Assembly (NCBI GenBank): GCA_002291895.1 | Contig: DBAX01000009.1 | Location: forward strand, 3,854-27,853 | Reading direction: 5' to 3' | Source: Cyanobacteria bacterium UBA999 | GTDB lineage: Bacteria > Cyanobacteriota > Cyanobacteriia > Pseudanabaenales > Pseudanabaenaceae | DNA: 24,000 nt | Shown here: positions 6,142 through 22,982 of the stretch, piece by piece | How the letters are laid out: each line of letters opens with the position of its first letter | Numbering within the stretch: the first letter of the stretch is position 1 | The notes under the pieces: generated by a model | Databases searched by the model: none | What the model was told of the DNA's origin: nothing | The model's input: the letters and a program-made list of their open reading frames with translations, nothing else | Position numbers and translations under genes: made by a program

Positions 6142-6344
6142 TATACCGCCGAATGACGCCCCAGCGGCAGGGATGAACTCCTGCCCGGAACTCCCGAAGG
6201 GCTAGCAAGGATAAGCAAAAGCCGTTCTGGAAGCACATATTGATAAGCCGGAATTATAGAACGCCACCCCGGAATCGCTCCCCCCTGCCCGGTAGCGGTT
6301 CCAGCGGGCGGTACAATGAATGCGACGCGGTGTTGGGTAAATCC

Positions 6345-7115
6345 ATGGCAAATTTTGTCAGTTGGTTGGTGGGGGCGGCGTTGTTTTTTTTGGCCGCCTA
6401 CGGCCTGTTGGGGTGGCTGGGGGTACCCGGAGGGGACTTCACCCTGTGGCTGGCGATCGCCGGGATTTTTATCTGGTTGGTCATTATCACCACGGTGCCC
6501 TGGAACCTGCACTTTGGGGCCCGGGAAGTTCTCTCAGAGGCGGACGTATCCCGGGAGCGGGGCATTCCCATCGAGGGCAGCAAGCTCAACTATGCCCGGA
6601 TGCTGGCCCGGCGATCATTGGTGGTGGCGATCGCCCTCCATGGGATCACGGCCCTTGCCCTCTACGTCTGGGCGGTGCAGGGCATTGGGGCGATCGGCTA
6701 TACCGGGGCGGTGGCGGCTTTGCTGCTGACGGTGCTGCGTCCCACGATCCGCTTCTACGAATTTTTGCTGCAACGCCTGGCCCAGTTGCGCCAAGGGGTG
6801 ACCTTTCCCCGGGAGGATGTGGTCACCCTGCGGGAAAATGTCCGGGATGTGATCGACCGGTTGCTGGCCCTAGAATCCCAGTTTGCCGAAGATAATCCCC
6901 AGGGGTTCGTGCTGCGGCAGCGGCAATTTCAGGAACAGGTACTGCGGGATTTGGCGACCCTGCGGGTAGGTCAGAGCACCCTCGAAGCCCAGCAGCAGGT
7001 CGATCTGCAGCGGCTGCGCCAGGAGTCCCAAACGGCGATCGCCCAACTGAGCGAGGACAGCCGCTTTTTGGGGCAGGTGCGGGAGCTGATCCGCTTCTTT
7101 AAGTCCGCCGAATAG
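6345..7115 (+). CDS. Hypothetical membrane protein with C-terminal coiled-coil
   Basis: From ATG 6345 the protein reads MANFVSWLVGAALFFLAAYGLLGW...LAIAGIFIWLVIITTVPW (hydrophobic helices). Two more helices follow, then a Q/L/R-rich heptad-like tail. The 35 codons upstream (from 6240) look non-coding. No family recognised. Confidence 0.55.
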   Translation: MANFVSWLVGAALFFLAAYGLLGWLGVPGGDFTLWLAIAGIFIWLVIITTVPWNLHFGAREVLSEADVSRERGIPIEGSKLNYARMLARRSLVVAIALHGITALALYVWAVQGIGAIGYTGAVAALLLTVLRPTIRFYEFLLQRLAQLRQGVTFPREDVVTLRENVRDVIDRLLALESQFAEDNPQGFVLRQRQFQEQVLRDLATLRVGQSTLEAQQQVDLQRLRQESQTAIAQLSEDSRFLGQVRELIRFFKSAE

Positions 7116-7987: not shown

Positions 7988-10570
7988 ATGGCGGTGGTCG
8001 GGGACTGGCTGTCCCGCTTAAAACCCAAACGCCTGGCGATCGCCGAGGCCTGCTTGATCGGCCTGCTGGTGGGTCTGGCGGCGGTGCTTCTCAAAATTTT
8101 GGTCGGCGAAGTCGGCGGGCTGCGGTTGCGCGTGGCCCAACTGGTACCCTATGGTTTGGGGCTCCCCCTCTTTGGCATGGTAGCCGGGGCGATCGCCGGA
8201 TGGCTGACCATGACAACCCCCCAAACGGCGGGCAGCGGGATTCCGCCGATCAAGGCTGCCCTTGGTTACGTACCCCTCACCCTCAACGCTCAGAGCGCCC
8301 TCGTCAAGCTCTTGGCTGCCACAGTGGTGCTCGGCGGTGGCTTTGCCCTGGGGCGTCAGGGCCCAACGGTGTATATCGGCGCGGCCCTAGCAGCCCAACT
8401 CGGCCGGCTTTTGCCCACCTCGCCGGAATACCAGCGGCAGTTACTAGCGGCAGGGGCGGCCGCAGGGTTGGCGGCGGGCTTTAATGCTCCTTTGTCGGGG
8501 GTAATGTTTGTCGTTGAGGAACTACTCCACGATGTGTCGAGCATCACCCTGACCACCAGCATTCTGGCGTCCTTTGTCGGCGGGGTCGTGCCCCAAATCA
8601 TTGGCGGCGGGCCGGCGGAATTTGACAGCATCGCCCAACTGCCCGGGCTGGCGATTTCCTTCCGAGAAATTCCCTACTTTGTGCTTTTAGGAGTGCTCGC
8701 GGGTTTGGCCGGCGCCTGGCTGCAGCGCTCAATTCTGACCGGCATCCAATATTGGCGGCGCTGGTTGCCCCAGTCCCTGATGCTACGGATGGCGATCGCC
8801 GGTCTGCTGACAGGCTGGATGCTCAGTTTTCTGCCTGCCAACTTTTGGGATAGCGCCGGGCTGCAACAATTGCTGTCCCGCGGCCAGGGGGATTGGCTTT
8901 TTATCGTCCAAACCCTGTTTGCCCGCATGGCCTTGACGCTTTTAGCCTGCAGTGCCGAGGCCCCGGGCGGATTGTTTTTACCCAGCCTGATCCTGGGCTC
9001 TGCCATGGGTTCTCTAGTGGGTTTGGGCGAGCAGTACGTCACTGGTGGGGGGGGAACGGTTGAGGTTTATGCTCTCGCCGGCATGGGGGCCTTCTTCGGT
9101 GCGGTTTCCAAGGCTCCGATCACGGCAATTATGATCGTGTTTGAGACCACCAGAAGTTTCTCTTTGGTGCTGCCCCTGATGGTCGGCGGCATTACTGCCT
9201 ACCTGGTGGCGGAAAAATGCTCCCCTGGCTCTCTTTACAGTCGGCTGTTGGCAACCAACGGCATCCTCCTTCCCGATGGTCAAAGTGAGGTGCTCTGGCA
9301 AAAGTTGACGGCTGGACAAGTGATGCGATCGCCCGTAGAAACCCTATCCAGTTCCCTGACACTCGACGAGGCCAGCATTGCCTTCGCCAAGTCCCACCAT
9401 CGGGGATTTCCGGTCATGGAGGGGACGCGGCTGGTGGGCATCGTTACCGAGACCGATCTGGCCCATGCCCGGCGGGAGCAAATGTCTCCGGATACGGCCC
9501 TTACCCAAATCATGACCCCCAATCCCATCACCGTGGGCTGGCAGGAACCCCTAGCCCGGGTGCTGTACCTGCTGTCCCACTACCGGCTGTCGCGCTTGCC
9601 AGTGCTGGAGCACCAAAAACTGGTGGGGATCATTACCCGCAGTGACATCCTGCGGGTGGAAGCAGCACAGCTCGACCTCACCCAAACAACGGCGATCGCC
9701 ACGTCTTCCTATTGTGCCTATGCTACCCGCGCCCCTGCTACGGGCAACGGACGCCTCCTGCTCCTATTGCGGGAACAAAGCCAGGTGGATCTTTTTATGC
9801 GCTTTGCCCTGGCGATCGCCCAGGAACATCAGTGGGAGCTTGAGTGCCTCCACGTTATTACCATCACCCCCGACCGCGCCCCCGCCACCACCCCCGTCGA
9901 CCTAGAACCGGGTATTTCCCTGCTACAATCGGCCCAAAAGCTAGCCCAGGGCTGGGGTGTCCCGGTGCACACCCAAATCCGGGTGGCCCATCGGCTCAGC
10001 GACTGCAGCCTGGAGGTTGTCCAGGAGCGGACGATTCGCCTGATGCTGACCGGCTGGCATGACCCCAACCGTTCCGTGAACCGGGACTGGCAGGAATTGC
10101 TGCGCCTATCCCCCTGCGACCTGCTGATGATTCGACCCATCGCCCATAGGAGCACGGACATCATCCCCCCCCTCAACCGTTGGTTTATCCCCACCGCTGG
10201 GGGGCCCAACAGCACGTGTGCCCTCGATCTGCTGCCCGCCCTCATCGGCATCAGCCAGCAACCGGAAGTTGCCCTTTGCCAGATTCGCTCCCCCCACACC
10301 GACTACGGCAGTTTCAGCCTTGAGCGCAGTGTTCGGCTCCTGGAGCAGCGCCTACCTTGCCCTGTGGTTCCCCAATGCCTTGATGCCCCCAATGTGCCCC
10401 AGGCGATCGCCCAGGCTGCCATGGAGCAGCGGGCCCAGGTTATCCTGCTGGGGGCCAGCCGCGAAAGCTTTTTGCAGCAGGCGTGGCAGGGCAGCATTCC
10501 CGAAGCAGTTGCCCGTCAATGCCCTTGCACCGTTGTTGTTTTCCGCAGGGCCGAGCCTCCCCAGTCCTAG
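7988..10570 (+). CDS. ClC-family chloride channel/antiporter fused to a CBS pair and tandem USP domains
   Basis: 860 aa. ClC motifs are GSGIP (8231-8245), GRQGP (8351-8365), GFNAPLSGVMFVVEEL and GGLFLP. A CBS pair and two USP-like modules follow (listed separately). Confidence 0.9.
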   Translation: MAVVGDWLSRLKPKRLAIAEACLIGLLVGLAAVLLKILVGEVGGLRLRVAQLVPYGLGLPLFGMVAGAIAGWLTMTTPQTAGSGIPPIKAALGYVPLTLNAQSALVKLLAATVVLGGGFALGRQGPTVYIGAALAAQLGRLLPTSPEYQRQLLAAGAAAGLAAGFNAPLSGVMFVVEELLHDVSSITLTTSILASFVGGVVPQIIGGGPAEFDSIAQLPGLAISFREIPYFVLLGVLAGLAGAWLQRSILTGIQYWRRWLPQSLMLRMAIAGLLTGWMLSFLPANFWDSAGLQQLLSRGQGDWLFIVQTLFARMALTLLACSAEAPGGLFLPSLILGSAMGSLVGLGEQYVTGGGGTVEVYALAGMGAFFGAVSKAPITAIMIVFETTRSFSLVLPLMVGGITAYLVAEKCSPGSLYSRLLATNGILLPDGQSEVLWQKLTAGQVMRSPVETLSSSLTLDEASIAFAKSHHRGFPVMEGTRLVGIVTETDLAHARREQMSPDTALTQIMTPNPITVGWQEPLARVLYLLSHYRLSRLPVLEHQKLVGIITRSDILRVEAAQLDLTQTTAIATSSYCAYATRAPATGNGRLLLLLREQSQVDLFMRFALAIAQEHQWELECLHVITITPDRAPATTPVDLEPGISLLQSAQKLAQGWGVPVHTQIRVAHRLSDCSLEVVQERTIRLMLTGWHDPNRSVNRDWQELLRLSPCDLLMIRPIAHRSTDIIPPLNRWFIPTAGGPNSTCALDLLPALIGISQQPEVALCQIRSPHTDYGSFSLERSVRLLEQRLPCPVVPQCLDAPNVPQAIAQAAMEQRAQVILLGASRESFLQQAWQGSIPEAVARQCPCTVVVFRRAEPPQS
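9320..9661 (+). other. CBS-domain pair inside the ClC protein
   Basis: VMRSPVETLSSSLTLDEASIAFAKSHHRGFPVMEGTRLVGIVTETDL and IMTPNPITVGWQEPLARVLYLLSHYRLSRLPVLEHQKLVGIITRSDIL. Confidence 0.8.
9749..10552 (+). other. Two USP-like (universal stress protein) modules at the ClC C-terminus
   Basis: GRLLLLLREQSQVDLFMRFALAIAQEHQWELECLHVI... and RWFIPTAGGPNSTCALDLLPAL...AQVILLGASRESFLQQAWQGSIPEAVARQCPCTVVVFR match the USP beta-alpha pattern. Recognition is by eye only. Confidence 0.6.
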
Positions 10571-11568
10571 GTACAGGACTTGACCTTAGCCATCAGGGCC
10601 TGCAGGTGGGCTGGCAAGTCCGCCGTCGGGCACCATATCGGCGCTGGCAGGTGCCCTTCGGGGGCAGTTGTCGAAAACTGTAGCTGATTGGGGTTAAGCC
10701 ACACCCCCTCCCGCCGCCAACCAAGGCGATCGCCCAAGTGCTGCCACGTCCCTCCAGCCGGGGCCAGGAGTTCGGCGATGGGGTCGGAGGCCACTACCGT
10801 CGGCAGCAATTGCTTGAGCGCCCCAGAACTGGAAATACTCTCCACCTTGCCCGACACCACGAAGTCCTGGGCCTGCTTGATCTCCTTAATCACCACGGGA
10901 GCAAGGACGCGAAATGAATTGTTGGTGTTGACTACCGCGCCCTTAATATCCTTCATCAGCGCCTGCCAAGATCCAAGCCCTGCTCCCATGTCTTGCAGTT
11001 GCTGACAGAGGGCGGCCAAGTTTTGCCGGCTCGTGGGTGTATCGGGCAGCTTGAACAAGTTCAGCAGATCCCGCAACCGATGGGGAACCTCCTGCTGAAA
11101 GCGCGTCACTGTTTCGGCACTCAATGCGGGCGCAGCCCCTTGCCCCGCAAGGTGATCCATGTAGCTTTTAAGTTCCTCTAGGACGGGCTGGGACTCAACC
11201 ATGACCGCCGCCGCGGTTTGGGGCGACAATCCATCGGGGCCCTCGAGGTAGTCTAGAAGCTCTTTGATCTTGTCGCACCCCTTCAAAAACAGGGATTGCA
11301 ACTTTTGATCTACGGGAAAGTTGGGTTCATCCCGCAGAACCCGAAAATGATCCTCAAGGGCATGGGACAGTTGCCTTAGGCTGTCCAATCTCAGCATTGC
11401 GGCACCGCCCTTGATGGAGTGGGCAGCACGGAAAATGCTGTTAATTCCTTCGCCCTCGGGATCCTTCAGCGTTTCCGGGAGGTTGATCAGCCCGTCCTCC
11501 ATGGCCTGCAAGTTTTCCTTGCTTTCCTCAATAAAGTAGCCAATGATTTTTTTTTGCTTGTCGTCCAT
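10567..11568 (-). CDS. Stand-alone Hpt (histidine phosphotransfer) protein whose C-terminal tail resembles the second half of a GUN4 domain
   Basis: 333 aa. The N-terminal Hpt four-helix pattern has the phospho-His motif FRAAHSIKGGAAML (H50 codon at 11419-11421). The SD-like TAGGAA lies 7 nt upstream of ATG 11568. The tail GGTWQHLGDRLGWRREGVWLNPNQLQFSTTAPEGHLP is GUN4-like. Confidence 0.8.
   Translation of the reverse strand: MDDKQKKIIGYFIEESKENLQAMEDGLINLPETLKDPEGEGINSIFRAAHSIKGGAAMLRLDSLRQLSHALEDHFRVLRDEPNFPVDQKLQSLFLKGCDKIKELLDYLEGPDGLSPQTAAAVMVESQPVLEELKSYMDHLAGQGAAPALSAETVTRFQQEVPHRLRDLLNLFKLPDTPTSRQNLAALCQQLQDMGAGLGSWQALMKDIKGAVVNTNNSFRVLAPVVIKEIKQAQDFVVSGKVESISSSGALKQLLPTVVASDPIAELLAPAGGTWQHLGDRLGWRREGVWLNPNQLQFSTTAPEGHLPAPIWCPTADLPAHLQALMAKVKSCT
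10570..10791 (-). other. GUN4-like domain, C-terminal half
   Basis: W-x2-(L/F)-x-D-R-(L/V)-G-W ... P-x-G-H-L-P matches the conserved second half of GUN4 domains (compare plant GUN4 ...FFVKVEWMK...PLGHLP). Confidence 0.6.
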
Positions 11569-11582
11569 GGATGGTTCCTACC

Positions 11583-12131
11583 CTATTGCCCTACAACTTG
11601 TGACGAAATCCGCTGCTGCACGCTGAAGCCAAATCGCCCCTGGCTGTGCTTTACCCAAAGGCCATCCATTTGCTGGAGAATGGCGCAGGGTAGCTGCTCA
11701 AGGTCGGCGGCGGTGATGGCAGAATCCTTGGGCTTTTGCAGTGCTTGGCAGAGCAACCGCCACGTTTCGATGTTGGCTTCCCGCCACCGGCTGGCCCGCA
11801 GTAGGGCTTCGAGATTGGCAAAGGAAAGGCTCGGCAGCACGGCTGCTACTGGAGCAAAGCCCTCGGCCCGCCGCCGGAAGTGGAGGGTCATGGTCATTCC
11901 CCCGGTGGGAGCCTGATGCCCCACAAGCACCACTTCCCCAGACTCCGTAATCCGAACTGGCATAGAGATTTCCTCAAGGGCAAGTCCGGTACCGCCGTCG
12001 GGAATAATTTGGCTTACAAAGTGGGAGAGCCTCTGCAAGCTTAGCTTGACGGCTTGGGCGTCGATGACACGGGTATCAGTGCGGGTGCCATCGGCTGTCG
12101 TAACCTCAATTAAGATCTCTTCCTTGCTCAT
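11583..12131 (-). CDS. Two-domain ORF: Trypco2/CU044_2847-like N-terminal domain plus a truncated (N-terminal half) GUN4-like domain
   Basis: From ATG 12131 the protein reads MSKEEILIEVTTADG...LALEEISMPVRITESGEVVLVGHQAPTGGMTMTLHFRR. That beta-rich pattern recalls trypsin-co-occurring domain 2 (tentative). Then comes FANLEALLRASRWREANIETWRLL...LEQLPCAILQQMDGLWVKHSQGRFGFSVQQRI (GUN4 first half), followed by 7 aa and TAG. The start overlaps the upstream ClC gene by 26 nt. Confidence 0.65.
   Translation of the reverse strand: MSKEEILIEVTTADGTRTDTRVIDAQAVKLSLQRLSHFVSQIIPDGGTGLALEEISMPVRITESGEVVLVGHQAPTGGMTMTLHFRRRAEGFAPVAAVLPSLSFANLEALLRASRWREANIETWRLLCQALQKPKDSAITAADLEQLPCAILQQMDGLWVKHSQGRFGFSVQQRISSQVVGQ
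11607..11828 (-). other. GUN4-like domain, N-terminal half
   Basis: The W-x-EA(D/N)-x-ET ... PC-x2-L-x2-(I/M)D-x-LW-x3-S-x-GRFGFSVQ pattern is present. Confidence 0.7.
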
Positions 12132-13986
12132 GGGGCTTTTGCAGGTAGCGGTGGACGGGGACGGCGGGCGGTTCTGGCGGAATGTTGGCACTGATTGTAT
12201 CAGCAGTGGGTCTTTCTGGCTCTATGCTATCCAATTTCTGGTGGGCGGAGATTTTTTCGGCGATCGCCCTTTTGGTGAGGGCCGTAGCATGGGCCGTGGC
12301 GATCGCCTGACGCTCTACAACGCCAATTACCCGCTTGGTCTGGTGCCGATCTACTACGGGCAGTTGGCGCAAATCCCGGGCAGCCATGCGTTTCAGGGCG
12401 GCGGCTAGGGTTTCGTCGGCATAGGTAAACAGCACTTCGGGGGTGTAGGCATCGGCAACGATCAGGCTCTCGGGCGATCGCTGGGGAAAGGCAGATAGGG
12501 CACGCTTAATGTCTTGGGTGGTCAGGATTCCCGACAAATGATTGTTTTCGTCTAGGACGAGCACGCTGTGGTAGTAGCCACTGGTAACAAACTGCGCCGC
12601 CTGGAGCAGGGGCATCTGACTTTTGAGGCATAGCGGATTGAGGGTCATCACCTCGGCGATTTTGATATTGGAAAGCACATCAAGGTCGATCGCCGATTCC
12701 TGGGCAGCCACAGCCACGGCGGGAGCCTCCGGTACCGCAGGATAGACCTGTTCTACCAACCAAGAGCAAAAACCCACGCTGGCCATAAGGGGGAGCACAA
12801 TGCGATAGTCGCGGGTGAGTTCAAAGAGCAGGAGCACCGATGTCAGAGGAGCCCGCACCGTGCCCGCCAAGAGCGCTGCCATTCCCATCAGGGCATAGGC
12901 GGGTGGGGCGGAAATGACCACGGAGTCCGGTAAGACCAGGGGGAGCACTGTGGCGTAGAGGGCCCCGAGCACCGCTCCCAGGAAAATTGCGGGCGCGAAA
13001 ATTCCTCCCACAAAGCCCGATCCCAGGCACAGGGCAGTGAGCAGCACCTTACCGACCAGCAGTTGGGACAGCAGGGCGGGGGAGAAGGGAGCCCCCTGGA
13101 GAATGCCCTCCACAGTTTCGTAGCCTACGCCCAAAATTTCGGGCACCACGAGGGCCACCATCCCGGTAATCCACCCTCCTAGAAGCAGTTTCAGCACGGG
13201 AGGCACCGTACCGGTCAGGGCAGCTTTCATCCAAGTTAGGCAGCGGTTGAAGGCGATCGCCACGCCACTGCAGAGCACGCCCAAACCCACATAGAAAATG
13301 TACTCCCCGTAGCTACGGAGTTCGTACACTGGCAGGTGAAAGGCGGCTTCGGGCCCAAGCCCCACCTGGGCAATAATTGCAGACAGCACTGCCGCCAAAA
13401 CCACGGCACTGATATCGGTGTTGGTCTGCCCACCTCCGGTGCCGTAGACGCTGCGCAGGGAAACTTCAAGGGCAAAGAAAACCCCGGCAATTGGGGCATT
13501 GAAGCCGGCTGCCAGACCGCCTGCGGCGCCCGCGGCCATGAGCAGTCGGGTGCGCTCCGTCGAGAATTGCAACTGTTGCCCTAACCAGCGGGCCAGCTGA
13601 CTACCTAGTTCCACGCTGGGCCCTTCAGGCCCCAGGGAAGCCCCTGCCCCCAGGGAGACTACGGCCATCAGAGCCCGCAGCAGGGTCTGCCCCAGGTTGG
13701 TTTGCTCGGCGTTGGTCTGGGTCAGGCGATCACCCCACCCCCGCAGGAGGGCAACCAAGAGGGCCCCCAGCACCGGGATGACAGCGACAGAAATGGCCGC
13801 CACGGGCATCAGCCAGTGGAGCAGTTGCTCCCAGTAAAAACCCTCAGCCCAGGCAATACTTTTGCGAAACAGCGTCACGGCCGAGCCAGCCACCACACCT
13901 ACGGCGATCGCCGAGCCCAGCACCACCGTTGCCGCTGAGGGTTGGAAGCGGTTGAGTATGGCAACCAACAGACGGGAGGTGGTCAT
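12106..13986 (-). CDS. ClC-family chloride channel/antiporter with C-terminal CBS pair
   Basis: 626 aa. ClC motifs are GPEGP (13618-13632), GFNAPIAGVFFALEVS, GGIFAP and RAPLTSVLLLFELTRDY. The CBS pair is IAEVMTLNPLCL...LSGILTTQDI and ...LRQLPVVDRHQTKRVIGVVERQAI. ATG 13986 lies 20 nt after the upstream gene's stop. Confidence 0.9.
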   Translation of the reverse strand: MTTSRLLVAILNRFQPSAATVVLGSAIAVGVVAGSAVTLFRKSIAWAEGFYWEQLLHWLMPVAAISVAVIPVLGALLVALLRGWGDRLTQTNAEQTNLGQTLLRALMAVVSLGAGASLGPEGPSVELGSQLARWLGQQLQFSTERTRLLMAAGAAGGLAAGFNAPIAGVFFALEVSLRSVYGTGGGQTNTDISAVVLAAVLSAIIAQVGLGPEAAFHLPVYELRSYGEYIFYVGLGVLCSGVAIAFNRCLTWMKAALTGTVPPVLKLLLGGWITGMVALVVPEILGVGYETVEGILQGAPFSPALLSQLLVGKVLLTALCLGSGFVGGIFAPAIFLGAVLGALYATVLPLVLPDSVVISAPPAYALMGMAALLAGTVRAPLTSVLLLFELTRDYRIVLPLMASVGFCSWLVEQVYPAVPEAPAVAVAAQESAIDLDVLSNIKIAEVMTLNPLCLKSQMPLLQAAQFVTSGYYHSVLVLDENNHLSGILTTQDIKRALSAFPQRSPESLIVADAYTPEVLFTYADETLAAALKRMAARDLRQLPVVDRHQTKRVIGVVERQAIATAHATALTKRAIAEKISAHQKLDSIEPERPTADTISANIPPEPPAVPVHRYLQKPHEQGRDLN

Positions 13987-14006
13987 AACCCCAAGCCATC
14001 TCCTCG

Positions 14007-16367
14007 CTAAGGGGCTTCAGTGTCGTAGGCGTCATCATCCCCCCCGTAGGATCCATCGGCGATGGCACTCCTGGGGTCGGCATCCATAGAATCCCTTTGA
14101 TCGTTTTGATCGTTAGGTGGTTCGTTGGAATCGATGGACACTGCGTCAACCTCCTCCCCTTCGGCAGTAGGCACGGCCACGACGGCTTCCAGATCCACCT
14201 GCTGGCGGTAGTAGTCCACTCCACGCACCTGCACCTCGACGCGATCGCCCAAGCGAAACTGCCGCCCACTGCGACGACCCACCAGAGCCGAAGCCTGCCG
14301 CCCCTTGCCCCGTCCCCCGGTTTGGGGAAATTCGTACCAGTCATCCTTTAACGAGCTGACGTGCACCAGTCCCTCTACTAGCAGTTCTTCTAATTCCACA
14401 AAAAATCCGTAGGTCTGCACCGAGGTGATCATGCCGAAGAAGTGTTCCCCAGTGCGCGATCGCATGATTTCGGTTTTGCGCAACCCCTCCAAGTCTGCCA
14501 TGGCCCGAAAGTAGAGCGCCTCCTGCTGGGTGAGCCGGGGCAGCACTTCCGCTAGATCCTCCTGCAGTTGCTTTTCCCGCTCCGGTGGCAACACCCCCCA
14601 ACTGATCTGGCCGTGGCATTCCGAGCTACGCAGATTCACCGAGGCTTTGCTCCGCTGCGTTTTGCGATCGCGCCCCTCAGCGAACACCCAATGCCAAACC
14701 CGCTGCATCAACAGATCGCCGTAGCGATGCTGGGGCAAAATGCCATGGGTATAGGGCATCAAACCCAGACCGAAATGGGGCTCCGCTGTGCTGCGATACT
14801 CGCAGGATTTGAGCATCGCCATCAGCAGGTAGCGCAAAATATCCCGTCCCGCAGCCGACTCAAGCTGCTGCACCTGCCCCAGGAGTTTCTGCCAATGGTG
14901 GGGTTGGCAGGAGTCATCATCGCCCAGCTCTAGGGGCATGCCTAAACTTTCTAGCAGCCGGAGCCAGTCCTCCTGCTTGCCCGACTCGGGAGGAGCCTGG
15001 GAAACAAAGAGCCCCGGCAGACCCAATTGCTGCCAGTGCTGGGCGATCGCCCAATTGGCCAAGATCATGACATCCGCCACCGCACCGCAGATGGGCATGG
15101 ATGTTCCCGACACGGCCATCCCCCACACCCCCTCATCCCCCTCAAAGGGCAACGGCAAAGATAGATCGATGCTCGGCATCGGCCGTTGCTGCCGCAGGAG
15201 CATCCCAACTTCATGGAGGCGATGCAAAAAGTGCTGCACCTCATCCCGCTCGGTAGCCGCCAAGGACTCGGCAAAAATCTCCTGGGCCCGCCGTGGTTCC
15301 AAGTGCGATCGCAGCTGAATCACCGACGGCTGGAGTTCGTAGCTCAGCAGTTTTCCCGTCCCATCCAACTGCATCAGCACCGAGACCGTAAGAAACTCCG
15401 GCTGGTTAAACCCATTGAGTTCCGGCAGCATCGACAGCACCGTATCGCCCAGGAAAAACGACCGCAAGCGCCGTCGCGCCTCTCCATCGAGGGGAGCGTC
15501 GGGCACGACGTAGGTCGCCACATCGGGAATGTGCACTCCCAGATTCCAACCCAGCTCCGTCGGCTCTAGGGACATTGCCGCCCCCTGACCAATCCGCACC
15601 GTGCATTCCTTTTTGAGATCCAACCGGCTCTTGAGATCCGCCTTCCGCACCTTCGTGGGCAAACTGGCCGCCGCCGCCAACTCCTTAGCCCCAAATTGGC
15701 GGGGCAAATTGTACTTGCAGCACACCAAATCCAAGTCGTTGGTAGTTTCGGGACTGTCCCCCAAAACCTGCAAGATCTCAGCCATCGGTAAAGCACTTCC
15801 CAGGGGGTACCGGCTCACCCGCAGGTGTACCAACTTACCTGCCGCCACCGCCAGATCGGGCACGATGTCGTTAGGAACCAACTCCAGCTCAAACAGCAGA
15901 CGATCATCCAATGGGATCGCCCGGTAGCCCTCCTCCCGCGCCTCAACGCGAGACAGCAGCGTCGTGTTTGTGCGCTCCAAAATCAGCCGCACCTCCCCCT
16001 CGGGCGATCGCCGCCGGCCGCCATCCTTGAGCACCTTAACCAGCACCAAATCCCCATTCCAGGCCGTACTCAGACGACTGCTGGGAACGTAGACATCTTC
16101 CACCCCTTCCCCTTCCTGAATGGCAAAGCAAAAACCCTTACTGGAACAGCGTAGCCGCCCCTCAACCACGCCTTCTTCTGCGATCCGGCGATAGCGCCCC
16201 AAATCCTTGGTTAAAATTCCCAGCCGCTCCAGGGCATCCAGCGCCACCTGCATCCGGCGCACCTCCGCCGGCCGGTCTGAAATCCCCAAACGCTTTTCGA
16301 TCACCTTTGGGGCTACCAGCTTGTCGTCGCTAAAGCTATCCAAAAGTTGTGTGATCGAAAATTCCAT
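14007..16367 (-). CDS. RNase II/R-family (RNB + C-terminal S1 domain) protein with degenerate catalytic motifs
   Basis: The overall VacB/RNase R architecture is present. RNB-region landmarks are WNLGVHIPDVATYV, LSMLPE, DVMILANWAIA and HFGLGLMPYTH. The S1 domain is GEHFFGMITSVQTYGFFVELEELLVEGLVHVSSL. ATG 16367 (MEFSITQLL...) is preferred over the TTG at 16394. Confidence 0.85.
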   Translation of the reverse strand: MEFSITQLLDSFSDDKLVAPKVIEKRLGISDRPAEVRRMQVALDALERLGILTKDLGRYRRIAEEGVVEGRLRCSSKGFCFAIQEGEGVEDVYVPSSRLSTAWNGDLVLVKVLKDGGRRRSPEGEVRLILERTNTTLLSRVEAREEGYRAIPLDDRLLFELELVPNDIVPDLAVAAGKLVHLRVSRYPLGSALPMAEILQVLGDSPETTNDLDLVCCKYNLPRQFGAKELAAAASLPTKVRKADLKSRLDLKKECTVRIGQGAAMSLEPTELGWNLGVHIPDVATYVVPDAPLDGEARRRLRSFFLGDTVLSMLPELNGFNQPEFLTVSVLMQLDGTGKLLSYELQPSVIQLRSHLEPRRAQEIFAESLAATERDEVQHFLHRLHEVGMLLRQQRPMPSIDLSLPLPFEGDEGVWGMAVSGTSMPICGAVADVMILANWAIAQHWQQLGLPGLFVSQAPPESGKQEDWLRLLESLGMPLELGDDDSCQPHHWQKLLGQVQQLESAAGRDILRYLLMAMLKSCEYRSTAEPHFGLGLMPYTHGILPQHRYGDLLMQRVWHWVFAEGRDRKTQRSKASVNLRSSECHGQISWGVLPPEREKQLQEDLAEVLPRLTQQEALYFRAMADLEGLRKTEIMRSRTGEHFFGMITSVQTYGFFVELEELLVEGLVHVSSLKDDWYEFPQTGGRGKGRQASALVGRRSGRQFRLGDRVEVQVRGVDYYRQQVDLEAVVAVPTAEGEEVDAVSIDSNEPPNDQNDQRDSMDADPRSAIADGSYGGDDDAYDTEAP

Positions 16368-16868
16368 AACATTTAGTTCCCTGTAGTCATTCAATCTTAC
16401 CGCAAGCAGGAATCATTCAGCCCCTTGGCAGATGCGACACGGACAGGAAGCATCATCCGCACTGCAACCACAAAGCCGCTTGTATTGACCGATACATCAC
16501 CCCGCCCCGATTTCCCTCAGAAATTGCCATTAGCAGCAAAGTGTAGTACATATCTTTATAGTTTTCTTTTTGCCCCTGTCGCCATTGCTCCAGATTTCGC
16601 TCTTCTTGGTCACCTTCCCCGGCTGAATTGCATGGTGCTGTTTACGGTCCTCAATTAGCCTACTGGTGTGACGCAGCTAAGAAGCAGTTGAGAGAGGAGC
16701 CGTTCCTGAGGTGGCATGTTCCAGTGCGTCTCCATCAAATGTGGAGGTTTCTGGACATTCTTAGCGAAATTGCTAAGATAGTTCGGGGATTCGTGGGCAT
16801 CCTGAGCCAAAATGCAGGAGAGCAAGTACGAATTTTTGACGAATTGTTGTCAGTGTGAGGACTATTTC
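16368..16868. promoter_or_regulatory. Divergent intergenic/promoter region between the RNase II-like operon and the porin gene
   Basis: A 501-nt non-coding gap that is more AT-rich than its flanks and has no HIP1. Candidate plus-strand elements are TTGCCA (16524-16529), a 17-nt spacer, then TACATA (16547-16552), and also TTGACG (16836-16841). None is decisive. Confidence 0.4.
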
Positions 16869-21806: not shown

Positions 21807-22982
21807 CTAGCGGATTGCCGCTACCATCTGGGCCCCGGCCGGGCTTTGGTTGCCGCTAAGCAAGTCTTCGATCGCCACTGCCAATTTCGCTGGGGAAACC
21901 GGATGGGGGAGGAGCAATGTACCGCCAGCCCACCGTACGCGCGTCTTTTCCAGCAAGCCATTCGACGACAGCAGAAAGAGTACCGGCGTTTCGCTAAAGC
22001 CGCGACTTTGGCGCAGCAACTGACAGAATTCATAATCTGCCGTCGTGAAGATAAACAGCGCCGGGCGACGCCGCAGCAATTGCAGCAGGTTCCGATCCGG
22101 TTGGGCCAAAACCATAACCTCATACCCGGCATCCCGCAGCAGCGTGGGCAAATAGTCATCCGTCCCCACCACGGCAATAAGGGGCAATTGCTGCACTTCC
22201 GGGAGCGTATTGGCCGCAAAGCGCACGGGCAGGGGCAAATCCTCCACGGGCTGCAGGTGCACTACCCCCCGCCCCACAAGGGGTAGCAGCAGGCGCATAG
22301 TATCGCAGGGCGATCGCTTTAGTCGCACCGCCACATCCCAAATTGTTAACTGCCCCTGGAGCAGCATCAGTAAATCCTCAAACATAGCCGTGGGCAGCAT
22401 AGAGCGGAGATGCTCCGGATGGCACAGCACCGGGGCCATATTGGGCTGAAACCGGGGCATACGCGCCCGCATCCGCCCTAAGCCACAATTTTGCCAGTCC
22501 GCGCGCATAGCGTAAGCCTGCTCCACAAGATTTTGGGGGCAGAGGAAGACCAAATGCTGCTGGAGTTGGCGATAGGGCAGCCAGACCATTTGGGTGCAGA
22601 AATTCTCGATAAAGTCAAAAAACACTTCGCGCACGATGTGGTTCACCACGGCCTTAGCCGCCGCCGCCGTAATCTTTCGTGACTCAAGCCATGTTGTAAG
22701 AACCTGAAGTTCCCAGGGGCAACGCACGTCCACGATCTCCATGGGCTGATGTACCGAGGGCGTTCCCGCCAAATGGGGAAGCACCTGCCGAACTGCCCGC
22801 TCCCAACGCCGCACGCGGTGACTGGTAGCCGTCGCATAAACCACGCGCCCCATGTGCAGATAAAGGTGCCACTGCTGCTGGGGGTCTTCGTTGTGCATAA
22901 GTATCAATTCGCCACAGGCCTTTTCTTGACTTAAGTCATTGAGGCGCTCGGCGATAGAGCTGATGATCGTGATTTCTGACAT
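21807..22982 (-). CDS. PatA-type protein: N-terminal PATAN (DUF4388) domain + degenerate receiver domain
   Basis: The N-terminus CGELILMHNEDPQQQWHLYLHMGRVVYATATSHRVRRWERAV fits the PATAN pattern. The C-terminus has a receiver-like fold (see the sub-feature). AGGAAA lies 4 nt upstream of ATG 22982. Confidence 0.75.
   Translation of the reverse strand: MSEITIISSIAERLNDLSQEKACGELILMHNEDPQQQWHLYLHMGRVVYATATSHRVRRWERAVRQVLPHLAGTPSVHQPMEIVDVRCPWELQVLTTWLESRKITAAAAKAVVNHIVREVFFDFIENFCTQMVWLPYRQLQQHLVFLCPQNLVEQAYAMRADWQNCGLGRMRARMPRFQPNMAPVLCHPEHLRSMLPTAMFEDLLMLLQGQLTIWDVAVRLKRSPCDTMRLLLPLVGRGVVHLQPVEDLPLPVRFAANTLPEVQQLPLIAVVGTDDYLPTLLRDAGYEVMVLAQPDRNLLQLLRRRPALFIFTTADYEFCQLLRQSRGFSETPVLFLLSSNGLLEKTRVRWAGGTLLLPHPVSPAKLAVAIEDLLSGNQSPAGAQMVAAIR
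21828..22175 (-). other. Receiver-like (pseudo-REC) domain lacking canonical phospho-acceptor residues
   Basis: LIAVVGTDDYLPTLLRDAGYEVMVLAQPDRNLLQLLRRRPALFIFTTADYEFCQLLR...TPVLFLLSSNG...LLLPHPVSP. The beta3 ...LLD-x-MP-x-DG segment is replaced by the shorter FIFTTAD. The conserved Lys of (T)KP is His. Confidence 0.6.

Follow-up and report, generated by a model that had tools for sequence, protein, structure and literature searches.

Introduction

The structure of the GUN4 domain has been described for SynGUN4, in which helices alpha1 to alpha5 form, together with alpha7, a hydrophobic 'greasy palm' (PMC1084334). The loop between alpha6 and alpha7 is a self-packed hydrophobic unit that rests loosely on this palm, and the porphyrin site is situated between the palm and the loop (PMC1084334). 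Two residues of the loop, Pro208 and Leu210, are required for folding, and mutation of Pro208 leads to misfolding (PMC1084334). In true GUN4 proteins, the ligand motif is defined by bilin- and porphyrin-binding residues that follow a GHLP sequence (PMC10156173; PMC1084334), whereas GUN4 paralogues in general do not carry the LxNxLR element (PMC10156173). This report concerns two adjacent open reading frames (ORFs), called ORF1 and ORF2, that carry complementary halves of a GUN4 domain on separate polypeptides. Both lie on the minus strand of a 24,000-nucleotide stretch of DNA from Cyanobacteria bacterium UBA999 (GenBank assembly GCA_002291895.1, contig DBAX01000009.1, positions 3,854 to 27,853), which is referred to below as the window and to which all coordinates of the pair and its neighbors apply.

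GUN4 domains can be found in cyanobacterial conflict systems, where they are fused to TIR, kinase, caspase, and effector-associated domains (PMC7159879; PMC8195603). The fusion partners given in reviews are kinase, caspase, trypsin, and TIR domains; Hpt is not among them. A divided signaling protein is also known from Synechocystis, in which a cheA homologue is naturally split into pilL-N/hik36, which contains the Hpt domain, and pilL-C/hik43 (PMC7656254). The products of these genes, Hik36 and Hik43, interact with each other and with Rre6 (PMC7656254).

The ORF1-ORF2 pair belongs to the same domain family as the GUN4 (PF05419) signaling paralogues. ORF1 shares its likely N-terminal Pepco partner with intact Pepco-GUN4 proteins (P0329, P0349, P0357, and P0373), and ORF2, like other GUN4 paralogues, lacks the LxNxLR motif of true GUN4. 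The pair departs from these paralogues because its GUN4 domain is split over two polypeptides at the alpha5/alpha6 loop and because the partner is an Hpt domain. When compared with canonical GUN4 (Sll0558; PDB 1Y6I and 1Z3X), ORF1 superposes on alpha1 to alpha5 and the tail of ORF2 corresponds to residues 176-217 of 1Z3X, but the pair is split and lacks the N-terminal GUN4 helical domain, the residues Asn211, Arg214, and Arg217, and the link to Mg-chelatase.

On the signaling side, ORF2 has the bundle fold of CheA P1, its HS(I/V)KG phospho-His motif, and its conserved Lys and Glu. Unlike CheA, it has no P2 to P5 domains and therefore should have no kinase activity of its own. A closer counterpart is the N-terminal module of certain CheA-like kinases that we take, from their gene order and architecture, to be of the HmpE/PilL/TaxAY3 type of the pilus-motility system. 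Amino acids 3-269 of ORF2 are collinear with this module, are about 40% identical to it, and include both its Hpt domain and its second bundle. PilL-N (Slr0073/Hik36) is likewise a stand-alone protein, the product of a functional gene of its own, and operates together with a kinase core encoded elsewhere (PMC7656254); ORF2 can be likened to it by way of the HmpE/PilL-type kinases rather than through Slr0073 itself. In contrast to PilL-N, ORF2 is encoded outside any chemotaxis-like cluster, carries the C-terminal half of a GUN4 domain, and is paired with a gene for a Pepco-like domain and the N-terminal GUN4 half.

No published Hpt/GUN4 or Pepco/GUN4 pair, and no split GUN4 domain, was found in the literature searched. 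An earlier annotation of the window made from its sequence (hereafter the initial annotation) had likewise named no described Hpt/GUN4 combination. The split-GUN4 arrangement is apparently undescribed; co-occurrence of Hpt and GUN4 is already visible in precomputed Pfam annotations. To our knowledge, globular domains that have long been divided between two genes are rare, and more so are those with an unrelated signaling module at the break.

Results

Two adjacent genes carry complementary GUN4 halves

ORF1 (11583..12131, minus strand) encodes 182 amino acids, beginning with an ATG at 12131, and comprises a Pepco-like domain followed by the N-terminal half of a GUN4 domain (alpha1 to alpha5, the 'palm'). 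This start is supported by a protein N-terminus, M-x-x-EE-(I/F)-LIE, that is kept throughout the family. ORF2 (10567..11568, minus strand) encodes 333 amino acids, which make up a CheA P1-type Hpt domain, a second helical bundle, a short linker, and the C-terminal GUN4 half. The two are separated by a spacer of 14 nucleotides (nt) (11569..11582, minus strand) with an AGGA sequence 5' of the ORF2 ATG. The peptides quoted in the initial annotation, as well as the TAG stop codon, the spacer with its AGGA, and the ATG, are all present in the sequence.

It had been proposed from these features that the two ORFs hold complementary GUN4 halves on either side of an Hpt domain, and that this could be checked with the Pfam GUN4 and Hpt profiles. 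The proposal was borne out, with ORF1 matching the first half of the GUN4 profile, the ORF2 tail matching the second half, and the remainder of ORF2 including an Hpt match (E 4e-16). The GUN4 half of ORF1 (amino acids 103-179; 11595..11825, minus strand) covers profile positions 7-85 of 141, with a score of 73.8 bits and an E value of 2e-20. Amino acids 267-309 of ORF2 cover positions 81-124 of the same profile (E 6e-7), with a score of 30.1 bits against a cut-off of 29.2, and the orthologous ORF2-type tails score 16-31.5 bits. The C-terminal half in its entirety (amino acids 267-333; 10570..10770, minus strand) consists of alpha6, the GWR...P-x-GHLP loop (the 'lid'), and the terminal helix.

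Other references give the same result. On the crystal sequence of T. elongatus GUN4 (1Z3X), residues 98-174 are covered by ORF1 and residues 176-217 by the ORF2 tail. On the PADLOC PD-T4-6 profile, which has 450 positions, ORF1 covers 308-385 and ORF2 covers 387-448, and the tail therefore supplies everything up to the profile end. Furthermore, hidden Markov models (HMMs) made from the ORF1 and ORF2 families match intact GUN4 domains one directly after the other. A match to the tail HMM follows 189 of the 267 matches to the N-terminal half found in cluster representatives, with a median gap of 10 amino acids; in one kinase-GUN4 protein, for example, the two HMMs match residues 413-506 and 507-552. 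The halves are complementary and lie end to end on these four independent references. One contiguous GUN4 domain in a single polypeptide is found neither here nor in any of the orthologues examined.

The two halves differ in how confidently they can be modeled. In AlphaFold2 (AF2) predictions, the five GUN4 helices of ORF1 have predicted local distance difference test (pLDDT) values of 81-92, and the model can be superposed on crystal structures of GUN4 across 79-86 columns with a root-mean-square deviation of 1.4-2.2 Å. ORF1-type proteins end 6-10 amino acids past the GRFGFSVQ motif, just after helix alpha5. By motif register, F169, V171, and I175 of ORF1 are equivalent to Phe160, Val162, and Val166 of SynGUN4, and the residues at palm positions are kept and hydrophobic across the family. 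Conservation of 90-100% is seen for W116, N120, E122, T123, W124, C128, K133, and C149, and also for L158, W159, S163, G165, G168, F169, and Q172. The tail of ORF2, when folded alone by AF2, reaches pLDDT values of only 41-70. It is nevertheless well conserved, with W284, G305, P308, and P310 invariant and W275, R285, W290, P303, H306, and W312 conserved at 90% or more. P308, which is the proline of GHLP, corresponds to Pro208 of SynGUN4, and past GHLP the conserved residues W312, W316, and C332 are specific to the family. A confidently predicted ORF1 half and a conserved ORF2 tail of low confidence fit a process of folding upon binding.

Several cysteines stand out in these alignments. C128 and C149 are invariant in the ORF1 family, and both are also present in some intact GUN4 proteins. 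C332 of ORF2, two residues from the C-terminus, is 96% conserved. These residues could provide a disulfide, a metal site, or a point of covalent ligand attachment.

The N-terminal region of ORF1 (amino acids 19-87; 11871..12077, minus strand) is Pepco-like, with a score of 22.3 bits for Pfam Pepco (PF24393) that falls below the cut-off of 27. Orthologues score 24.9, 27.9, 37.2, and 58.4 bits, and membership in Pepco is likely at the level of the family as judged by these profile scores. AF2 models the region as an alpha/beta domain with pLDDT values of 53-72. The initial annotation had referred to this domain as Trypco2, which was not upheld, as the Pfam match is to Pepco and there is no Trypco2 match in ORF1 at E <= 1.

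The intervening segment resembles a kinase N-terminal module

Between the GUN4 halves, ORF2 begins with an Hpt or CheA P1-like bundle (amino acids 1-143; 11140..11568, minus strand) that can be recognized by the Pfam Hpt profile and by likeness to CheA P1 in both sequence and fold. Amino acids 8-101 match Pfam Hpt (PF01627) at E 4e-16 with 59.4 bits, relative to a cut-off of 24.6. The bundle also matches CheA P1 chains by sequence, and a Foldseek comparison with CheA P1 structures gives target-normalized TM-scores of 0.76-0.83. The phospho-acceptor, His50, is encoded by the CAC codon at 11419-11421 and resides within FRAAHSIKGGAAML. In 120 ORF2 homologues, H50, K53, G54, and E72 are invariant. 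By its profile match, its helical-bundle fold, and its His in an H-S-x-K-G motif, ORF2 qualifies as an Hpt domain of the CheA P1 kind, and the initial annotation was correct to identify a complete Hpt module with a phospho-His motif between the halves.

A further helical region had been noted as well, and this is also present as a second four-helix bundle (amino acids 151-238; 10855..11118, minus strand; pLDDT 92-98) that is common to the N-termini of giant CheA-like kinases. What had escaped attention is that both bundles have their origin in a kinase N-terminus. In the AF2 model of ORF2, two helical bundles take up residues 1-255, with pLDDT values above 90. The putative inserted module (amino acids 3-269; 10762..11562, minus strand) is collinear with the N-terminal ~280 amino acids of CheA-like hybrid kinases encoded next to genes for methyl-accepting chemotaxis proteins (MCPs).

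A genome scan with a single-protein query retrieved only one true orthologue, together with eight kinase N-termini. Identity between amino acids 3-270 of ORF2 and the eight MCP-adjacent kinase loci is 38-43%, and the match runs from the very N-terminus; with the Phormidesmis kinase, identity over amino acids 3-269 is 42% (E 2e-70). The matching hybrid kinases have 1600 or more amino acids, and their genes directly follow an MCP gene in Phormidesmis, Crinalium, Tychonema, and several metagenome-assembled genomes (MAGs). The homology stops at approximately residues 256-269 of ORF2, leaving a short linker before alpha6 of the GUN4 domain. On the strength of these alignments, the Hpt domain and second bundle of ORF2 are judged to be a copy of the N-terminal module of an HmpE/PilL-type CheA-like kinase. 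This homology gives the pair a likely signaling context.

The split is ancient and the genes remain adjacent

More than 120 full-length ORF2 homologues, with lengths of 333-424 amino acids, were found. Homologues of both proteins belong for the most part to Pseudanabaena and its relatives, and the named sources of ORF2 homologues include Pseudanabaena spp., Thalassoporum PCC 7367, Synechococcus PCC 7502, Tumidithrix, and MAGs of Oscillatoriales. A profile search with ORF1 similarly yielded more than 120 proteins, all of 181-214 amino acids. The initial annotation had suggested a search for the same split in related cyanobacteria, and the split is present at an unchanged profile position in every homologue examined. 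On the GUN4 profile, four orthologous pairs have their ORF1-type proteins terminating at positions 83-86 and their ORF2-type tails starting at 81-87. The ORF2-type gene is directly downstream of the ORF1-type gene in 25 of 28 metagenome loci, and at the remaining three the contig ends. The genes are adjacent also in PCC 7367, in one complete Pseudanabaena genome, and in the MAG SM2_2_1. Signature residues are kept at 90-100% in both halves, indicating purifying selection on both ORFs. The split is ancient, has become fixed, and has been kept across a whole order.

Two trivial explanations could be set aside. Misassembly is ruled out because four contigs, originating from two samples or more, encode identical ORF1 and ORF2 proteins. 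A pseudogene or fragmented gene is ruled out by the presence of the split in all orthologues and by the conservation of the signature residues.

Two loci elsewhere in the collection deserve mention. One ORF2-type ORF (L046:540-1082) stops after 180 amino acids on a low-coverage contig of 1.1 kb, a truncation that an error in assembly or sequencing, or else a local pseudogene, would probably explain. In addition, a TIR-GUN4 gene is broken in the same alpha5/alpha6 loop (L101:1330-1640, also L102 and L103; eight contigs). Its N-terminal half ends with FGFSVQKKIWQQCGKLFYF and a stop codon, and its C-terminal half (NKQWEKFGEIVGW...GHLP) lies ~100 nt downstream in another frame, with stop codons in all three frames between them. 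This broken gene could be a pseudogene or could contain a small insertion.

Several ideas about the junction and the composition of the inserted segment proved less durable. Translational coupling had been proposed from the tight spacing of the two ORFs, but the 14-nt spacer is specific to the lineage of the window; the spacers of orthologues measure 41-228 nt and place the second gene in all three relative frames (10, 8, and 7 cases), with no conserved recoding signal. Coupling is therefore not a feature of the family. Likewise, the Val-Val codons sharing GTAG that had been noted at both junctions are not kept in orthologues. With regard to composition, the GC counts reported for two 60-nt samples (27/60 and 40/60) are right, but the Hpt segment as a whole is ordinary. 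Its GC content of 55.3% falls at the 15th percentile for windows of the same size, and its GC at third codon positions (GC3) is 0.68, compared to 0.66-0.74 in neighboring genes. The gap without HIP1 sequences is also real (10726-12260), but it spans ORF1 too and is unremarkable, as other such gaps in the window measure 1487, 1257, and 1232 nt. There are 56 HIP1 copies in the window with a mean spacing of 431 nt. The only copy in the pair (GCGATCGC; 10726-10733) coincides with the codons for Gly279-Asp280-Arg281 in the LGDRLGW motif of the C-terminal GUN4 half. Neither repeats at the insert junctions nor transposase genes were found.

Origin of the split

Intact Pepco-GUN4 proteins of 273-302 amino acids, which cover GUN4 positions 2-125, are encoded by stand-alone genes in cyanobacterial contexts. 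ORF1 and the ORF2 tail are collinear in alignment with these proteins, two of which rank third and seventh of all tail-HMM scores. A search for an uninterrupted GUN4 gene had been recommended, and the intact Pepco-GUN4 genes look like such a gene as it would have been before the split. The insertion of an Hpt piece into a GUN4 gene, as first envisaged in the initial annotation, is the most economical origin, and the likeliest course of events is that a kinase 5' module entered a Pepco-GUN4 gene long ago. In a forerunner of the Pseudanabaena lineage, the sequence coding for the alpha5/alpha6 loop of this gene would have received a copy of the 5' portion of an hmpE/pilL-type gene together with the start codon. 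The upstream reading frame would then have been terminated, and the downstream GUN4 remnant would have become fused in frame to the Hpt module.

Genomic neighborhood

The pair is part of a one-strand array, RNase R - CLC/CBS channel - ORF1 - ORF2 (10567-16394, minus strand), that is kept across relatives and was seen at loci L001, L005, L007, and L018-L044. The array begins with an RNase R-type gene (14007..16394, minus strand). A gene for a CLC chloride channel with a pair of CBS domains (12106..13986, minus strand) is next, directly 5' of ORF1, and its stop codon region overlaps the start of ORF1 by 26 nt (12106-12131). This conserved neighbor precedes the pair directly in 28 of the 29 loci with enough upstream DNA, and no CLC gene is found directly upstream of the pair in PCC 7367 (L003). 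The channel and the pair may be functionally tied. Promoter and terminator scans over the rnr-clc-ORF1-ORF2 array gave nothing above the expectation from shuffled sequences, which fits co-transcription but is no evidence for it.

A second CLC paralogue (7988-10570, plus strand; 860 amino acids, with CLC, two CBS, and Usp domains) converges on ORF2, and the two genes share nucleotides 10567-10570 through their overlapping stop codons. A CLC channel gene thus stands on either side of the pair in the lineage of the window, and likewise in SM2_2_1 (L007). Within ORF2, codons 4-7 (KQKKI) contain a homopolymer of nine A residues (11545-11553, minus strand), a potential site of slippage or sequencing error; the ORF2 frame across this run is intact and identical on four contigs.

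Two more distant ORFs were also noted. One (21807-22982, minus strand) encodes a protein of 391 amino acids whose only match is to PATAN/DUF4388 (E 1.4e-5), with no receiver domain detected. PATAN domains are typical of PatA/PilG-type regulators in cyanobacterial pilus motility. The other (6240-7115, plus strand) is an ORF of 291 amino acids that matches no Pfam family at E <= 0.001, and the JGI call at this place is a gene of 256 amino acids without Pfam matches.

Discussion

The preferred reading of this locus is that the two GUN4 halves reassemble in trans into one fold, to which a probability of roughly 0.6 can be assigned from the sequence evidence. The argument is that residues characteristic of the fold have been kept in both pieces and that the two genes are strictly adjacent, both of which are hard to explain otherwise. 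Because the alpha6/alpha7 loop of GUN4 is self-packed and loosely held on the palm, the break falls at a natural seam between sub-domains. On this reading, the halves would re-associate non-covalently into a GUN4-like fold, and ORF1 and ORF2 would be obligate partners in a heterodimer linking a phosphorylatable Hpt domain with a Pepco-like domain. The ancestral ligand pocket would then be located at the subunit interface, where a ligand could tune association. More speculatively, the Hpt domain might be phosphorylated in trans by a kinase core of the PilL-C/HmpE type, as proposed for Hik36 and Hik43 of Synechocystis, and might then act as a source or a sink for the phosphorelay of type IV pilus motility.

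Some observations weigh against this reading. By motif register, the LxNxLR motif (Asn211 and Arg214) and Arg217 have no counterpart past GHLP, where the window protein reads APIWCPTAD and the family consensus is GH(F/L)P-TPLWLA. Since these ligand residues of true GUN4 are missing, tetrapyrrole binding is doubtful, as it is in other GUN4 paralogues. Also, there is no chemotaxis-like operon with MCP, CheW, or CheY genes at the pair; the genes around it code for RNase R, for CLC channels, and for housekeeping proteins. Finally, no single chain with the order Pepco-GUN4N-Hpt-GUN4C was found among 150 representatives and 80 loci, so that insertion into the gene is indistinguishable from domain insertion followed by fission.

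A bolder version, in which the split GUN4 domain serves as a ligand-gated dimerization device with a tetrapyrrole or related hydrophobic metabolite bound between palm and lid, seems unlikely. Under this proposal, occupancy of the pocket would control whether the Pepco protein holds the Hpt module. Pigment or redox status might thereby be linked with the type IV pilus phosphorelay and perhaps with the co-conserved CLC/CBS channel. The setting would be early-branching filamentous cyanobacteria, and the pair would be a counterpart in nature, spread over two genes, of engineered split-protein sensors.

The strongest challenge to reassembly is that the halves might be evolutionary leftovers that no longer meet, each having been co-opted separately. 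The alpha1 to alpha5 portion would be a stand-alone helical domain, the tail would be an extension of the Hpt protein, and adjacency would reflect shared transcription. Consistent with this, the ORF1 half is modeled confidently on its own by AF2, the sequence past GHLP is unlike that of intact GUN4 proteins and has its own conserved W312, W316, and C332, and the canonical ligand motif is absent. Nevertheless, this explanation is doubtful, as it would leave a bare hydrophobic palm exposed and a tail that is strongly conserved yet predicted to be unstructured alone. In both pieces, conservation is highest at precisely the signature residues of the GUN4 fold, which have no obvious meaning outside it, and the two genes adjoin each other at every locus where enough sequence is available. 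The pair might also belong to a biological conflict or anti-phage system, given that both ORFs match the PADLOC PD-T4-6 profile, that both Pepco and GUN4 domains are known from systems of this kind, and that GUN4 fusions with TIR, kinase, caspase, or effector-associated domains were encountered in this analysis too. However, the matches are confined to the GUN4-like end of the profile (308-448 of 450), with the N-terminal ~300 positions unmatched and no kinase part covered. No gene for an NTPase, peptidase, or other effector is adjacent, and the locus is single, syntenic, and vertically inherited among RNase R/CLC and housekeeping genes across the order. A role of this kind is thus quite improbable.

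Explanations that invoke a recent accident have hardly any chance of being correct. A recently inserted mobile Hpt cassette, a reading implicit in the initial annotation, an assembly chimera, or a decaying pseudogene might have been suggested by the lower GC of the sampled 60-mers and by the HIP1-free stretch. The split is shared by more than 120 homologues, including every one examined across Pseudanabaena and relatives, and the ORF1 and ORF2 proteins of the window reappear unchanged on four contigs that represent two or more samples. Normal GC3, a segment GC at the 15th percentile, the lack of repeats and transposase genes, and purifying selection all speak against such an event as well. It is similarly far-fetched that the two products are made as one chain through programmed frameshifting, read-through, or protein splicing. 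The short spacer in the window genome and the run of nine A residues at ORF2 codons 4-7 could be seen as hints in this direction, but in the spacer the TAG of ORF1 is joined by a second TAG that is in frame with ORF2 and lies 12 nt 5' of its ATG. Both frames are closed, and therefore a single frameshift cannot link the ORFs. Moreover, orthologous spacers vary in length and frame as described above, no intein motifs were found, and the ORF2 N-terminus matches the native N-terminus of the kinase module.

The ORF1-ORF2 pair offers a natural test of fragment complementation. Its break is at the seam between palm and lid, where canonical GUN4 binds porphyrin, and the inserted piece is the phospho-accepting module of a kinase that controls cyanobacterial pilus motility. 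The split also explains why these proteins have been given labels as inconsistent as 'GUN4 domain-containing', 'Hpt domain-containing', 'ChpA', and 'phosphotransferase'. The pair is found in culturable sequenced strains, including Pseudanabaena spp., PCC 7367, and PCC 7502, and it yields a concrete functional hypothesis for GUN4 paralogues. If the halves do reassemble, this would be an undescribed route by which a metabolite-binding fold is wired to a His-Asp relay.

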